From: Candidatus Micrarchaeota archaeon
GTDB taxonomy: Archaea > Micrarchaeota > Micrarchaeia > Micrarchaeales > CABMGC01
Length of the DNA stretch: 50,430 nucleotides
NCBI GenBank assembly: GCA_021810375.1
Contig: JAJZJB010000002.1
Span: 1-50,430 of the forward strand
Direction of reading: 5' to 3'
Positions within the stretch are counted from its first letter, which is position 1. Every line of letters starts with the position of its first letter. Below the pieces are notes generated by a model, which made no database searches, was not told the DNA's origin, and saw only the letters and a program-made list of their open reading frames with translations. The translations under genes were made by a program, and so were the position numbers. Positions 1,204 to 34,281 of this stretch are shown one piece after another.

Positions 1204-3276
1204 TTACGATACCTTGAACCTCGCCAGCAACAAGGAGTTAGAAACTACGGTCACAGAGCTAAAGGCCATGGCAAAGGCAGCCAATAGCGGTAAAATGCTG
1301 TAGACACTTGCCGTGAAGAACGGTATTAGCACGCCAGCAGCTACAGGAATCAGGACTATGTTGTATGCGAATGCCCAGAAGAGGTTCTGCCTTATCTTGT
1401 CCATTGTCCTCTTGCCTAGTTGTATGGCGATGAATGCATCGTAGATACTATTCTTTATCAGGACTATGCTGCCGGCCTGAAGTGCAACATCTGTGCCTGC
1501 TCCAATCGCTATGCCTACATCGGCCTTTGTCAGCGCAGGCGCGTCGTTTATGCCGTCTCCGATCATTGCAACAACCTTTCCCTCCTTCTGCAGCTGCACT
1601 ATCTTGTCCATTTTGTCCTTGGGCTTTGCCTGTGGGATCACGTTGCTTATGCCTAGCTGCTTTGCTACGGCATTTGCCACCCTTTCGTTATCGCCGGTTA
1701 TCAGCCATATCTCGTAGCCTGAGCTTTTGAAAGCATTTATCGCCTTCTTGCTGTCTTCCTTGATGACGTCTGCCAGCGCTATCAGCCCTATAATCTTGCC
1801 ACTGACGCCAACAATGAGCGTGGTTTTGCCTTCAGATTCTAGCTTCTGCAGTTGTTTCTCTACATTGCCAATCTGTTTATTATCGAATAGATCCCTGTTC
1901 CCGATAACTATCCTCCTGCCATTCTTGTCAAGTGCCGTTATGCCGCTGCCCTGTTTGTAGGTGAACTTCTTTGGAAACTCCGCCTTTATGCCAAGCTTAT
2001 CGGCCTTTGCTATTATCGCCTTCCCTATTACGTGCTCAGAGTTCATCTCGGCTGTGGCTGCAAATCTTAGTATCTCTTTCTCTTTGTATCCAGAAACCGC
2101 AACTATGTCCATGACCTCTGGCTTTCCCTTTGTAAGCGTACCTGTTTTATCCAATACCAATGCGTTGATCTTGCTAGCTTTCTGCAGGCTTTCTCCGCTC
2201 TTTACCAGTATCCCTTCCTTCGCAGCTCTGCCGGAGGAGACAAGCAACGCTGCAGGCGTTGCTATGCCAATGGCGCACGGGCATGCTATTATCAGAACGC
2301 TTACGAATATGAGTATAGATACATTCGCACTTACTCCTCCTATGAAGTACCAGGACAGCGAAGCCAGAATTCCGACAAGCACGACTATTGGTACAAAATA
2401 CGATGCGACCCTGTCTGCCAGTTTCTGTATGGGAACTTTGCTTGAGGCCGCATCTTGAACAATTTTTATTATCTGCGATAGCGCAGTATCCTCTCCAATC
2501 TTGGCTGTCCTGACTTTCAGAGAGCTTGTGGCATTGATGGTGCCGCCCATCACCTTGTAGCCTGCCCTCTTGGTAACGGGCATGCTCTCGCCAGTAATCA
2601 TGGACTCGTCAACGGAGCTTTCCCCTTCCACAACAACAGAATCAGTAGGTATCTTCTCTCCGGGCTTCACAAGGAGCATGTCTCCCCTCCTGATTTGCTC
2701 TATGGCGGTGTCAACAACCTTGCCACCTTCAATCCTGTGCGCTACCTTAGGCTGCAGGGCGATAAGTGCAGAAACAGCAGTAGACGCCCTTGATTCTGCG
2801 AGCCTCTGCATGTATGTTCCAGTGAGTATCAAGGAGATTATTATTGTCGAGGTATCGAAATATATACCTCCAGCAGGGAAGAGTGATGGCAAAAGCGTAA
2901 CCGCAGTACTATAGACCCATGCTGCGCTTGTGCCTATCGCAATCAACGTATCCATGTTGGCAGACTTGTTCTTTATTGCATCCGCTATGCCAGCATAGAA
3001 CCTCTGCCCAGCATAGAACTGCACTATACTCGCCAGAACCAGCATTATGTAGTTGCCAAAGCCAAGGTGCAGAACGTAAGTAAGTATTGCAACTATGATA
3101 GTAAGGGGCCATGAAATCATCAATGCGATTCTCAGGTTCCTAAGTTCCCTCTCGGGCCTCTCGAACTGAAGCTTGCAGTTTGTACTGCAGAAATAGTACT
3201 TCTTGCCTTCCTTTTCAGTAGCCAATGTAGAGTTTCTTTCATCAACATACATGCCGCATACAGGGTCTGTTGCCAT
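1204..3276 (-). CDS. copA: Copper-translocating P1B-type ATPase with an N-terminal TRASH/YHS-like metal-binding domain
   Basis: Motifs seen: CPC (IACPCAIG), DKTGTLT, ITGES and [10 protein letters not shown], plus N-terminal DPVCGM...YYFCSTNC. I moved the start to ATG 3276 (MATDPVCGM) because an upstream small ORF ends at 3281. Confidence 0.93.
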
Positions 3277-3280
3277 AATA

Positions 3281-3424
3281 TCATCTCTTTTTGCTGGCTT
3301 CGATAGTGCGCCTTGCAACACTCAGATTGCAGCCATCATGCGCAGAGCACCATTTGCGGCACTCTGTCGCCAATCTTCTGCTCCTGTAATGCAAACCGCA
3401 TATGGCGCATTTGTACTCCGTCAT
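3281..3424 (-). CDS. Small Cys-rich (CxxC...CxxxC) protein in the cop operon, 47 aa, absent from the ORF track
   Basis: Hand translation gives [47 protein letters not shown]. It lies 2 nt after the upstream stop and 4 nt before the copA start. Confidence 0.5.
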
Positions 3425-3426
3425 GG

Positions 3427-3567
3427 CTAACTCTTTGCATAGTTATCTGGCTTCTTGTCAAAGTTCTGCTTGCAGTTAGCGGAGCAAAAGACATAGGTTT
3501 TGCCCTTATAGCTGCTCCTGAACCTGGAGTTCTCTTCTACATCCATTTTACATACAGGATCTTTCAT
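3427..3567 (-). CDS. TRASH/YHS-domain metallochaperone-like protein, 46 aa, absent from the ORF track
   Basis: Hand translation gives MKDPVCKMDVEENSRFRSSYKGKTYVFCSANCKQNFDKKPDNYAKS. The DPVC-x-M...YxFCSxxC pattern is the same as in the CopA N-terminus. Confidence 0.7.
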   Translation of the reverse strand: MKDPVCKMDVEENSRFRSSYKGKTYVFCSANCKQNFDKKPDNYAKS

Positions 3568-30665: not shown

Positions 30666-30740
30666 GCTCCTATCGTCTAGTCCGGTCAAGGACGCAGGCC
30701 TCTCACGCCTGCGACTCGGGTTCAAATCCCGATGGGAGCA
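30666..30740 (+). tRNA. tRNA-Glu (anticodon CTC)
   Basis: GCTCCTA/TGGGAGC acceptor, CAGGC-CTCTCAC-GCCTG anticodon arm, TCGGG-TTCAAAT-CCCGA T arm. 75 nt. Confidence 0.9.
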
Positions 30741-30874: not shown

Positions 30875-31408
30875 ATGATTATCCATTCATATATAGTGGC
30901 AAGAGCTTGGTCTGCAATAAGTGCGTTGCGTCTTGTATTGGGGCAGAGAAGGTACCTGGTTACATTTCTAATTATTTCCGTGCTGTTCTTTATCGGATAT
31001 GGATATTTGCTCTTGCCTTCCTCGATAAATCTTGCAGGGCCCAAGATAGCCATAGGGTTGAATGCCTATTCCCTCATGGTATCAGCATCAATGGGCATAT
31101 TGTTTTCATTGTCAGTGGTAATGAGTGCCTTTGCCTTTAAGAGGAATGGCGCACTGACAGGCAAATTGGGGGTTGGAGCTGTGGTTGCTGCCATAATACC
31201 TGGCAGTTTGTGCTGTACCACACTCATACCCAGCATGTTGGCAGTGTTGGGCGCATCTACGTCTACAATAATAGGCACGGCAGGTGCATTGCAGGGCCCA
31301 TTTGCTGCATATGAAACGCCTTTAATAGTAACTTCAATTGGTTTCCTTTTGCTAAGTGTCATCCTGACATCAAGAAGCATAGCTAAATGTTGTGTGGTGA
31401 AGAAATGA
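30875..31408 (+). CDS. Membrane protein with an intramembrane vicinal Cys pair and a C-terminal CC (MerT/MerC-like candidate Hg(II) transporter)
   Basis: It has 4-5 hydrophobic segments. PGSLCCTTLIPSMLAVLG resembles the MerT TM1 motif (ACCLGPLVLIALG), and the C-terminus reads IAKCCVVKK. It is the first gene of the mer cluster. Confidence 0.45.
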   Translation: MIIHSYIVARAWSAISALRLVLGQRRYLVTFLIISVLFFIGYGYLLLPSSINLAGPKIAIGLNAYSLMVSASMGILFSLSVVMSAFAFKRNGALTGKLGVGAVVAAIIPGSLCCTTLIPSMLAVLGASTSTIIGTAGALQGPFAAYETPLIVTSIGFLLLSVILTSRSIAKCCVVKK

Positions 31409-31962
31409 AGAAGATTGTTTTAATGGCAGCAGTGATAGCGGTGGTAGTAGTAGCAGTTGTCGTCGTACTCTTTGTGCACGGTTCAACGAGCACAAGCGTA
31501 AAATTGCAGAACATAACTTCCGGTGAACTTGCACCGAATTATGAATTTCTTATAGCCAATGGCTCCTCTGCCAACCTGACATCGTATAGAGGCCATGTCA
31601 CGGTGCTGTGGTTTGTAGCCACGTGGTGCTCTAGCTGCGCGCAAGGCAATGAGGAGCTAAACCAGAACTATCAGTTTTTCAGAGAGCATGGAATAAAGGT
31701 TGTCGAATTGGAGCTATATAGGAATTTGGGATATAGCGGCCCGGATATAGCAAGCTTTGTGTACTCATATGCACCAACAGCATATGCCAACAGTACGATA
31801 ATACCCGCACAGGCAGGCTATAATATGACCGTGTCATACGACCCGAAAGGTTATCTTGACATATATTATCTTGTTTCAAGCAGTGGCAAGGTGCTTTATG
31901 TAAACAGCTCCCTTGGGTCAACTCTGGGCCAGCTTGAGCATGCCATAAATGTTTCTGAATAG
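31405..31962 (+). CDS. Membrane-anchored thioredoxin-fold (TlpA/redoxin-like) protein with a WCSSC motif
   Basis: N-terminal TM segment KKIVLMAAVIAVVVVAVVVVLF, then VLWFVATWCSSCAQG. Its ATG overlaps the upstream TGA. Confidence 0.7.
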   Translation: MKKIVLMAAVIAVVVVAVVVVLFVHGSTSTSVKLQNITSGELAPNYEFLIANGSSANLTSYRGHVTVLWFVATWCSSCAQGNEELNQNYQFFREHGIKVVELELYRNLGYSGPDIASFVYSYAPTAYANSTIIPAQAGYNMTVSYDPKGYLDIYYLVSSSGKVLYVNSSLGSTLGQLEHAINVSE

Positions 31963-32302
31963 TGATATCATGGATAAACTAGGAATAAAGACGTTCTTCT
32001 TTGCTATAGGCAACTACAGCAGATTCAGCATACTTACTGCCTTAACAGAAAAAGACCTGAACGTCAGCGAGATTGTCAATGCAACAGGCATAGAGCAGAG
32101 CAATGTGTCGCACCACATGGACTGTCTTCTGAATTGCGGTTTTGTAAATGTAAGGAAAGACGGCAAGGCGCGCATATACAGCATTAATGCAGAGGCAAGG
32201 CCGATAATAAACGGAATATTGAAGCACATACAGAAATACAGCCATGAAATAATGACCTGCGACTTGGCCAATAGGGAGTATATTTCGAGGGTGATTGAAT
32301 AG
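31949..32302 (+). CDS. ArsR/SmtB family transcriptional regulator (probable mer regulator)
   Basis: RFSILTALTEKDLNVSEIVNATGIEQSNVSHHMDCLLNCGFV is an ArsR HTH. It lies directly upstream of merA. Confidence 0.8.
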   Translation: MFLNSDIMDKLGIKTFFFAIGNYSRFSILTALTEKDLNVSEIVNATGIEQSNVSHHMDCLLNCGFVNVRKDGKARIYSINAEARPIINGILKHIQKYSHEIMTCDLANREYISRVIE

Positions 32303-33714
32303 GAAGTTTCGAATACGCAATATTAGGCCAGGGATCTGCAGCATTTGCCGCTGCAATAAAAGCAGACAGTTTGGGGATTAGGACTGCCATGATCGGAAAG
32401 AGCGCTACTAAAGGTACTGTTTTAGGTGGTACATGCATAAATGTGGGCTGCGTGCCGAGCAAGAGGCTCATAGCGGCAAGTTCCTTCATGGAGGAGCTAG
32501 GGCAGAGAAGGTTCAATGGCCTAAGCTACAGTATTGGGAAGCCCGATTATGCCAGGATAATGGATGAAAAAACGCGCCTGGTGGATGAGCTGAGAAAAGA
32601 GAAATACAAGGATGTCTTGGAGAATCTGGAAAATGTTACTTATATCAACGAAACTGCATCGTTCGTTGATAAAGATACCATAAAAGCAGGAAGGAATGAG
32701 GTAAATGCAGAGAGCATACTGGTAGCCACAGGAGCCCGCGCATCCGTTCCGCCAATAAAAGGAATAGAAAAGTCAACATATCTTACTAACGAGGAGGCAT
32801 TGTCACTCAGGAAGCTGCCCGAATCCATCATAGTTATAGGGGGGCGGGCAATTGGCCTGGAATTCGCCCAGATGTTTGCGAATTTTGGGGTAAAAGTGAC
32901 GCTGCTGCAAAGAAGCGATAGGATAATACCAAACTGGGAACCTGAAGTTAGCAGCCATCTTGCCTCTTATCTGAAGGCAAGCGGTGTGAAGCTGATTACA
33001 GGAGCTACGCCAGCCAGCATTATGACAAGCAAAAGGAATAAGGTGATAGAGGCAATGGTAAACGGCAGGCAGACCGTCTTTGAGGCAGAAGAAGTGCTGT
33101 TCGCTACTGGCCGGCGTGCCAACACAGAAAGCTTGAAGCTGGATGTTGTGGGAGTGCAACTAAATGCCAAGGGATTCATAAAAGTCGATAAACAGCTGAA
33201 AACCACAGCAGATGGCATATATGCTGCCGGAGATGTGACTGGGGAGCCTATGCTCGAGACTCTGGCTGCCAAGGAAGGCAATATAGCCACAGCAAACTTG
33301 TTTCAACATGCAGGGAAGGAGGTAAACATCAACGAGGTGCCTAGTGCTATATTCACTTATCCCGAAGCTGCTATGGTGGGCATGACCGAGGAGCAGGTTG
33401 TAAAGGATGGAATAAGATGCGCATGCAGCCCCCTCGAAATGAAGCTGGTGCCAAAGGCAAGGATAATGGGGGACCAGCGGGGCTTAGTAAAAATAGTGAT
33501 TGATAACAAAACCAAGAAGATACTAGGCGTACATATGCTCGCACCGCATGCGGCAGATATGATACATGAGGGAGTGCTTGCAGTCAAGTTTGGACTTACT
33601 ATAGATGACATAATAGACACTGTACATGTCTTCCCAACGCTTAGCGAAGGATTCAAACTGGCGGCACAGGCTTTCTATGAGGATGTTTCTAAGCTGAGCT
33701 GTTGCACTGCGTGA
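32299..33714 (+). CDS. merA: Mercuric reductase (core MerA without the NmerA domain); the start codon is unresolved
   Basis: GGTCINVGCVPSK is the redox-active disulfide and the C-terminus has the vicinal Cys pair KLSCCTA. The FAD GxGxxA motif (YAILGQGSAAFAAAIKA) is encoded at 32314-32364, upstream of the TTG 32371 used by the ORF track. Confidence 0.85.
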   Translation: MGSFEYAILGQGSAAFAAAIKADSLGIRTAMIGKSATKGTVLGGTCINVGCVPSKRLIAASSFMEELGQRRFNGLSYSIGKPDYARIMDEKTRLVDELRKEKYKDVLENLENVTYINETASFVDKDTIKAGRNEVNAESILVATGARASVPPIKGIEKSTYLTNEEALSLRKLPESIIVIGGRAIGLEFAQMFANFGVKVTLLQRSDRIIPNWEPEVSSHLASYLKASGVKLITGATPASIMTSKRNKVIEAMVNGRQTVFEAEEVLFATGRRANTESLKLDVVGVQLNAKGFIKVDKQLKTTADGIYAAGDVTGEPMLETLAAKEGNIATANLFQHAGKEVNINEVPSAIFTYPEAAMVGMTEEQVVKDGIRCACSPLEMKLVPKARIMGDQRGLVKIVIDNKTKKILGVHMLAPHAADMIHEGVLAVKFGLTIDDIIDTVHVFPTLSEGFKLAAQAFYEDVSKLSCCTA

Positions 33715-34209: not shown

Positions 34210-34281
34210 GCCCCAGTAGCTCAGTGGTAGAGCGCCAGTTTTGTAAACTGGATGTCGAGGGTTCGATTCCCTTCTGGGGCT
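34210..34281 (+). tRNA. tRNA-Thr (anticodon TGT)
   Basis: GCCCCAG/CTGGGGC acceptor, GCTC/GAGC D stem, CCAGT-TTTGTAA-ACTGG anticodon arm, GAGGG-TTCGATT-CCCTT T arm. 72 nt. Confidence 0.9.

Follow-up and report, generated by a model that had tools for sequence, protein, structure and literature searches.

MerT and MerF are importers, and are the described proteins closest to the one considered here. MerT (~116 amino acids, aa) has three transmembrane (TM) segments, with a vicinal cysteine pair (CC) and then a proline in a TM helix, a second TM helix, and cytoplasmic cysteines (C76/C82) in a loop; it is found in mer operons beside MerA. Its partner, MerP, is an extracytoplasmic, soluble protein of the HMA ferredoxin-like fold with a GMTCxxC motif, encoded directly beside the membrane transporter. 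MerF (81 aa) has two TM segments and two vicinal Cys pairs. In surveys, archaeal mer systems consist of merA alone, or of merA with arsR and a TRASH gene, with no transporter (PMC3466566), and a later census was limited to MerA and MerB (PMC8261052). Here we describe a four-gene mer cluster from a Candidatus Micrarchaeota archaeon, located in a 50,430-nt stretch of contig JAJZJB010000002.1 (assembly GCA_021810375.1; hereafter the window), in which genes for a membrane protein (i) and an anchored redoxin-fold protein (ii) precede those for an ArsR-type regulator (iii) and MerA (iv). Sulfolobus merRHAI is similar in being archaeal and in having an ArsR-type regulator and a core MerA without an NmerA domain (PMC3466566). 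However, the Sulfolobus operon includes the TRASH-domain protein MerH and lacks a membrane protein-redoxin pair, whereas the window cluster has the pair and no TRASH protein. A full-text literature search of incomplete coverage found no paper naming the (i)-(ii) pair; in public annotation, gene (i) is a 'hypothetical protein' and gene (ii) a 'redoxin' or 'TlpA family' protein.

Judging from sequence and genomic context, gene (i) probably encodes a MerT/MerF-derived Hg(II) importer in which the role of MerP is taken by the thioredoxin-fold protein, such that (i) and (ii) would replace MerT/MerP in a complete mer operon; it is from the same data that we infer the direction of transport and the Hg-binding role of (ii). 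We also put forward, tentatively and leaning slightly against its full extent, a broader proposal: that the membrane-tethered thioredoxin-fold CxxC protein is a previously unrecognised extracytoplasmic Hg chaperone handing Hg(II) to a four-TM MerT/MerF offshoot, that mer systems of DPANN, other acidophilic archaea and several little-studied bacterial phyla take up Hg(II) by this pair as standard, rather than by MerT/MerP, and that in Actinomycetota it is wired to a BlaI/BlaR1-type protease switch. Analysis of open reading frames (ORFs) across 30875-33714 recovered all four genes of the initial annotation, co-directional and tightly packed, in the following order:

30875..31408, + strand: gene (i), four-TM protein, 177 aa (ORF; family profile; topology)
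31405..31962, + strand: gene (ii), anchored redoxin-fold WCSSC protein, 185 aa (Pfam AhpC-TSA and Redoxin)
31970..32302, + strand: gene (iii), ArsR/SmtB-type regulator (NF033788; alignment of 13 co-travelling ArsR proteins)
32299..33714, + strand: gene (iv), core merA, 471 aa (TIGR02053; catalytic residues)

The protein encoded by gene (i) contains PGSLCCTTLIPSMLAVLG (C113/C114) and ends in KCCVVKK, with TM segments at residues 20-38, 64-89, 96-125 and 145-170 by hydropathy. The predicted cytoplasmic side (N-terminus, 90-95 loop and tail) carries six K/R residues, and the other two loops together carry one. This distribution predicts that the KCCVVKK tail is cytoplasmic and that C113/C114 lie mid-membrane in TM3, which fits the intramembrane LCC and cytoplasmic tail CC of the initial annotation; both motifs are present in the ORF. 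No family in Pfam or NCBIfam matched gene (i). A word-indexed search retrieved ~19 archaeal homologs with 51-91% identity, together with bacterial relatives from Vulcanimicrobiaceae that have LLPSSLCCTTLIPSALAALGAS in common. When a core-only profile was searched against 1.84 billion representatives, 173 proteins matched at E<=1e-3 and 94 at E<=1e-10, the majority of the 173 over all four helices. The TM3 CC and the Pro five residues on (P119 here) are invariant in the family, within an LP..LCC[T/S]P..P consensus found in nearly all of 149 listed representatives; the TM3 motif can also be written P-x-S-L-C-C-x-x-x-x-P. In most members the C-terminal tail contains Cys as well, either singly or as CC or CxxC; C173 is kept in >=90% of sequences in family alignments A1 and A2, and the second tail Cys is variable.

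The initial annotation had described gene (i) as echoing MerT on a different, larger scaffold, and had suggested profile-profile searches. We compared family alignments by hhalign with genuine MerT, MerF, MerC and MerE taken from annotated plasmids. The broad 72-sequence family alignment (A3) matched MerT with 93.7% probability (E 1.8e-7) over 79 columns, spanning MerT residues 7-90, with the TM3 CC placed on MerT C24/C25 and the tail Cys on C76/C82; alignment A1 gave 92% (E 6.7e-7). Against a single MerF sequence, A3 gave 52% (E 1.4e-4), covering the entire protein and aligning both vicinal CC pairs. The controls were far lower: 3% for MerC (E 0.015), 0.2% for MerE (E 0.37) and 0.2% for an unrelated membrane protein from the window (E 0.38), such that MerC and MerE were ruled out as relatives. 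We conclude from these alignments that the C-terminal half of gene (i) is a remote homolog of the MerT/MerF core. Gene (i) is thus larger than MerT, as first described, but its scaffold is not unrelated. Relative to MerT, it has two extra N-terminal helices, lacks the third helix that follows the cytoplasmic Cys in MerT, and carries the cytoplasmic Cys as a C-terminal tail CC rather than in a loop. Relative to MerF, the C-terminal half has the same layout of two TM segments and two CC pairs, but gene (i) has two helices more, is twice as long and has no PF11431 match. By the same comparison, we consider gene (i) a distinct family, predicted to consist of two novel N-terminal helices joined to a MerT/MerF-like unit.

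Linkage to merA is consistent with this assignment. Close homologs were found in eight distinct contexts, and in each of these the pair is adjoined by a Pyr_redox_2 reductase with LSCC at its C-terminus; the seven reductases that were scanned (the L014 copy was left out) score 504-542 bits on TIGR02053, above 454. In a phylum sample of 201 genomes, 33 have a strong match to (i) and 28 have MerA above cut-off, and all 28 MerA genes lie on the same contig as (i), within about 2.5 kb. Thus, 28 of the 33 strong (i) genomes have MerA; of the other five, MerA is cut by a contig end in G003, (i) lies near a contig end with no MerA above cut-off in G049 and G079, and the remaining two are weighed below. 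The initial annotation had named, as the outcome that would count against a role in mercury handling, homologs linked to CcdA or cytochrome maturation genes rather than to merA. The data fell on the side of mer: MerA linkage was complete, whereas CcdA/DsbD, encoded by 53 of the 201 genomes, coincided with (i) just once among the 33 positives, and there on another contig. We conclude that the mer association is essentially complete for the window cluster and its phylum.

To look further afield, we retrieved 72 loci from species-representative genomes of Actinomycetota, Dormibacterota, Chloroflexota, Proteobacteria, Bacteroidales, Micrarchaeota, Thermoplasmata and Woesearchaeota. The retrieval used family subgroup A4, since A3 was too diverse for pattern design, and is biased to the LCC[T/S]P..P[T/S] Actinomycetota-type branch. 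At 69 of the 72 loci, a homolog of (ii) adjoins (i); the remaining three loci lie at contig ends. In the reverse direction, a search from (ii) homologs in Marsarchaeota, Chloroflexota and Parvarchaeota found (i) directly upstream in three of three loci, one of them within an operon that also has a merT-like gene, merA (with NmerA) and merB. We conclude that (i) and (ii) are an obligate pair. The module is also present in Eremiobacterota, Actinomycetota, Dormibacterota, Chloroflexota and a few Proteobacteria and Bacteroidales, and overall the pair recurs in at least nine phyla. Hence, of the earlier suggestion of an archaeal Hg(II) uptake module, the link to mer genes held, but the module is not archaeal only, being found in several bacterial phyla as well.

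Within 6 kb of the pair, 32 of the 72 distant-branch loci have merA, merB or merR, as do 17 of the 33 loci with full flanks. This appears to be a strong enrichment, a 12-kb window representing at most about 1% of a genome by estimate rather than computation. Operon layouts include merR <-> merA, a MerF-like small gene, (i) and (ii) in Actinobacteria; arsR, (i), (ii) and merA; and, in Chloroflexota, a merT-like gene, merA (with NmerA), merB, a gene of no known family, (i), (ii) and arsR. In the Chloroflexota locus L093, the gene between merB and (i) (2845-3456) encodes a secreted protein of 203 aa that contains CAGC and matches no Pfam family. Separately, the third gene downstream in the Eremiobacterota locus L007 (6879-7337) encodes an anchored protein with TCASCARRVIPAIRSLQGV, which looks like an HMA/MerP metal-binding site; the protein matched only a UxxU metal-binding model, and that weakly (E 0.0045).

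Gene (ii) had been described as an N-terminally anchored thioredoxin-fold protein with WCSSC, and this was borne out: the protein has one N-terminal TM segment followed by the motif, and matches Pfam AhpC-TSA (PF00578; 36 bits versus a cut-off of 26) and Redoxin (PF08534; 29.5 versus 26.6). The ORF opens at 31387, and translation probably starts at the ATG at 31405, forming an ATGA overlap with the stop codon of (i). WCSSC is the family consensus, found in 48 of 65 primary copies, and the gene is often followed by a second redoxin-encoding paralog, in which the motif is GGCASC. Gene (ii) falls below the NCBIfam cut-offs for ResA (46.6 bits versus 170) and TlpA (23 versus 230), and also far below that for DsbE. 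Among solved structures, ResA and the uncharacterised thioredoxin-like protein 3ha9 come nearest, each with an E-value of only ~1e-5. The 3ha9 alignment extends over 136 residues, and its aligned segments (WFMAAWCPSC, GYPPPD, IDYIVIM and SLGELESVI) take in nearly the entire domain; 3ha9 may be a solved member of the gene (ii) family. Sequon density was considered as a sign that gene (ii) is extracellular and was discarded, since the value of 3.8 per 100 aa is close to the 3.6 of the cytoplasmic ArsR.

In its extracytoplasmic position, its CxxC and its place directly beside a membrane transporter gene in a mer operon, gene (ii) is like MerP. Unlike MerP, it is membrane-anchored and has a thioredoxin/redoxin fold, and no HMA (PF00403) match was found in the Pfam scan. 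It shares its fold, its N-terminal anchor and the position of W-C-x-x-C with TlpA, ResA and DsbE, but differs from these in having CSSC and in its partner, a MerT-like protein rather than CcdA/DsbD. If the pair imports Hg(II), two tasks for (ii) seem about equally likely: MerP-like capture of Hg(II), or keeping the outward-facing Cys of (i) reduced. Capture is plausible given that no CcdA was found, that CSSC is unusual, and that pairing with a MerT-like protein is obligate.

The other two genes would complete such an operon. Gene (iii), annotated initially as an ArsR-type regulator, matches NF033788 (71.8 bits versus a cut-off of 55); its ORF opens at 31949, and the likely start, matching relatives, is at 31970 (MDKL). 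Three Cys, in C-L-x-x-C-G and at the C-terminus, are invariant in 13 co-travelling ArsR proteins from five phyla, archaea to Actinomycetota, and this pattern is kept even at loci without merA. Gene (iii) is therefore a putative Hg(II) sensor, the ligand being suggested by these Cys. For gene (iv), the core MerA with a C-terminal CC that was first described proved sound: a 447-aa ORF started at TTG scores 522 bits on TIGR02053 (cut-off 454) and a six-frame match at 32311-33708 scores 551.9 bits. By residue criteria from PMC3466566, in Tn-type numbering, C136/C141, Y194 and C558/C559 are kept and position 535 is an archaeal-type Phe. There is no NmerA domain.

We propose the following route. The CxxC of (ii) would capture Hg(II) outside the cell and pass it to the intramembrane CC (C113/C114) of (i), from which it would move to the cytoplasmic tail CC (C173/C174). 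Hg(II) could then be delivered directly to the C-terminal CC of the NmerA-less MerA, and a C136/C141-type active site would reduce it to volatile Hg(0). Binding of Hg(II) by the three-Cys ArsR-type regulator would de-repress the operon. The pair would fill the transporter gap in archaeal mer systems, and would alter the view of early mer operons as simple. If functional, it would add a fold other than HMA to the Hg(II) hand-off proteins, would serve as an annotation marker for mer systems now labelled 'hypothetical protein' and 'redoxin', and would offer compact, acid-adapted parts for mercury bioremediation and biosensing.

Several observations weigh against this interpretation. Some concern the proteins themselves. 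Scores from hhalign may be inflated for short hydrophobic proteins, and the controls described above answer this only in part. The window gene (i) has no Pfam MerT (PF02411) match at E<=1, and among family members weak matches were found in 12 of 41, all below the gathering score of 32.9 bits; the best score among nine members scanned individually was 20.2 bits. Gene (i) is thus outside formal MerT membership, being below the gathering score and of different architecture. An AlphaFold2 (AF2) model of gene (i) is helical with only moderate confidence (pLDDT 68), and a Foldseek search of the PDB with this model was uninformative, with no match at E<=0.001. For its part, gene (ii) resembles the thiol-disulfide reductases TlpA and ResA rather than a metallochaperone fold.

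Other points against concern genomic context. No MerA was found in two genomes with (i), G033 and G128, and a bare pair is present in a few Proteobacteria and one Thermoplasmata genome. A BlaI/Penicillinase_R repressor gene lies directly upstream of the pair in 36 of the 72 loci, in Actinomycetota and Dormibacterota (e.g. L032 3980-4459), and a BlaR1-like M56 membrane protease is also encoded upstream in 32 of the 72 (e.g. L034 618-1625); mer genes lie within 6 kb at just 15 of the 36 loci with BlaI. Likewise, about half of the full-flank distant Actinomycetota loci have no mer gene within that distance. The ancestral or general role of the pair may therefore be broader than Hg, in soft-metal or thiol stress, with mer operons as its main home. 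If true, the BlaI/BlaR1 wiring would imply that soft-metal or thiol stress is sensed in a new way. We considered the BlaI-like repressors as an obvious metal sensor and rejected this, as they are without the C-terminal Cys motif of CopY.

The weak Pfam MerT matches fall in two places: some on TM3-TM4-tail, and others on an extra N-terminal hairpin (LCCAGP) of long Eremiobacterota forms, which carry a MerT/MerF-like hairpin as an N-terminal fusion to gene (i). In Actinomycetota, the counterpart of this hairpin is encoded on its own, by a small gene located between merA and (i), and matches MerF with 62% probability. Hence, MerF-like small proteins adjoin or are fused to gene (i) in other lineages.

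The alternative that survives best, although we consider it unlikely, is that the two proteins form a thiol-redox pair without Hg transport: (i) would move reducing equivalents like CcdA/DsbD, and the TlpA/ResA-like (ii) would keep extracytoplasmic thiols reduced or restore them to that state, also under Hg stress. The below-cut-off matches of (ii) to the ResA, TlpA and DsbE models and its similarity to ResA structures are consistent with this, as are the mer-free half of the distant loci, their BlaI/M56 control and the frequency of a second redoxin paralog after the first. However, we had considered CcdA/DsbD (PF02683) as a relative of gene (i) and rejected it: there is no Pfam match, the Cys are vicinal rather than placed singly in two pseudo-symmetric halves, and (i) is anti-correlated with DsbD_TM in the phylum, as the single CcdA among (i)-positive genomes indicates. 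Gene (i) matches MerT and MerF instead, and a vicinal CC is typical for Hg ligands but unusual in disulfide relays. In the host assembly (601 kb, 64% complete, which frames all genome-wide negatives), no DsbD_TM, cytochrome c assembly protein or HMA/MerP was found, and no cytochrome c maturation gene was found among those recurrent neighbour clusters that could be named. Finally, in a weak alignment with ResA, the canonical cis-Pro falls on Leu-Asp in the window protein, another difference from TlpA, ResA and DsbE; many bacterial members have Pro one position earlier.

We regard as improbable a second alternative, in which the module imports or binds thiophilic metals more broadly (Hg, Ag, Cu(I), Cd, Au) or organomercurials, and was recruited by mer operons in some lineages only. 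It would account for the presence of merB in seven of the 72 loci and in L093, for loci with ArsR and (i)/(ii) but no merA (L029, L049 and L094), and for an ArsB/arsenic gene that adjoins the module in L007. Against it stand the linkage of all 28 MerA genes in the phylum, and the retention of the same three ArsR Cys even without merA, which suggests a single ligand; moreover, no copper or silver resistance gene is recurrent among the neighbours. Lastly, the predicted extracytoplasmic, membrane-tethered CxxC domain would suit a scheme in which (i) and (ii) hold Hg(II) at the cell surface for sequestration or exclusion, with no delivery to MerA, but this is very improbable, as the MerT and MerF relatives import Hg, and as the conserved cytoplasmic tail Cys and the coupling to a cytoplasmic, NmerA-less MerA are sensible only with inward hand-off.

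Returning to the proposed Hg(II) import cluster in its genomic setting, it is bounded on both sides by tRNA genes:

30666..30740, + strand: tRNA-Glu(CTC), upstream boundary of the mer cluster (ARAGORN)
34210..34281, + strand: tRNA-Thr(TGT), downstream boundary (ARAGORN)

The same four genes are found in the same order, in different genomic surroundings, in other Micrarchaeota, indicating that the arrangement is not due to chance. In the Micrarchaeota loci L001, L003 and L014, the cluster lies between unrelated genes rather than between tRNA-Glu and tRNA-Thr; since the flanking genes differ among four Micrarchaeota arrangements, the four genes move as a cassette. From the source names of homologs, the host is an acid-mine Micrarchaeota.

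The start of merA required correction. The first canonical start codon in the window, TTG at 32371, would delete the GxGxxA flavin adenine dinucleotide (FAD)-binding motif. The frame instead opens at an ATA (32299-32301) that overlaps the arsR stop codon TAG (32300-32302) as ATAG. No ATG, GTG or TTG lies ahead of GxGxxA in the window (32296-32373), L001 (6395-6470), L003 (6395-6470) or L014 (6400-6520). In these four archaeal loci, the merA ATA directly follows an in-frame stop, and the ATAG junction is like ATGA coupling, which suggests a putative ATA start with termination-reinitiation. Gene callers shorten MerA at all four loci, and the 471-aa open frame is also present in many relatives of the phylum.

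Other genes accompany the pair in the distant branch. At L023, L035, L039, L044, L055 and L060, a second pyridine-nucleotide disulfide oxidoreductase is encoded between the M56 gene and (i); the protein (e.g. L039 3560-4984, minus strand) scores ~310 bits on the MerA hidden Markov model, has no C-terminal CC and ends in ...YLAALEPLSR. Neighbour clusters u9, u10, u12, u14, u19 and u20 had no Pfam match. Clusters u8 and u13, which are rich in Arg, were dropped as apparent shadow frames of the gene for the second redoxin in DNA of high GC content. Cluster u14 (L027 5109-5768 and 11 further loci) lies downstream of the redoxins and encodes a secreted or anchored protein of ~200 aa with conserved Cys (SISGCRA ... 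GGVDTPCGI).

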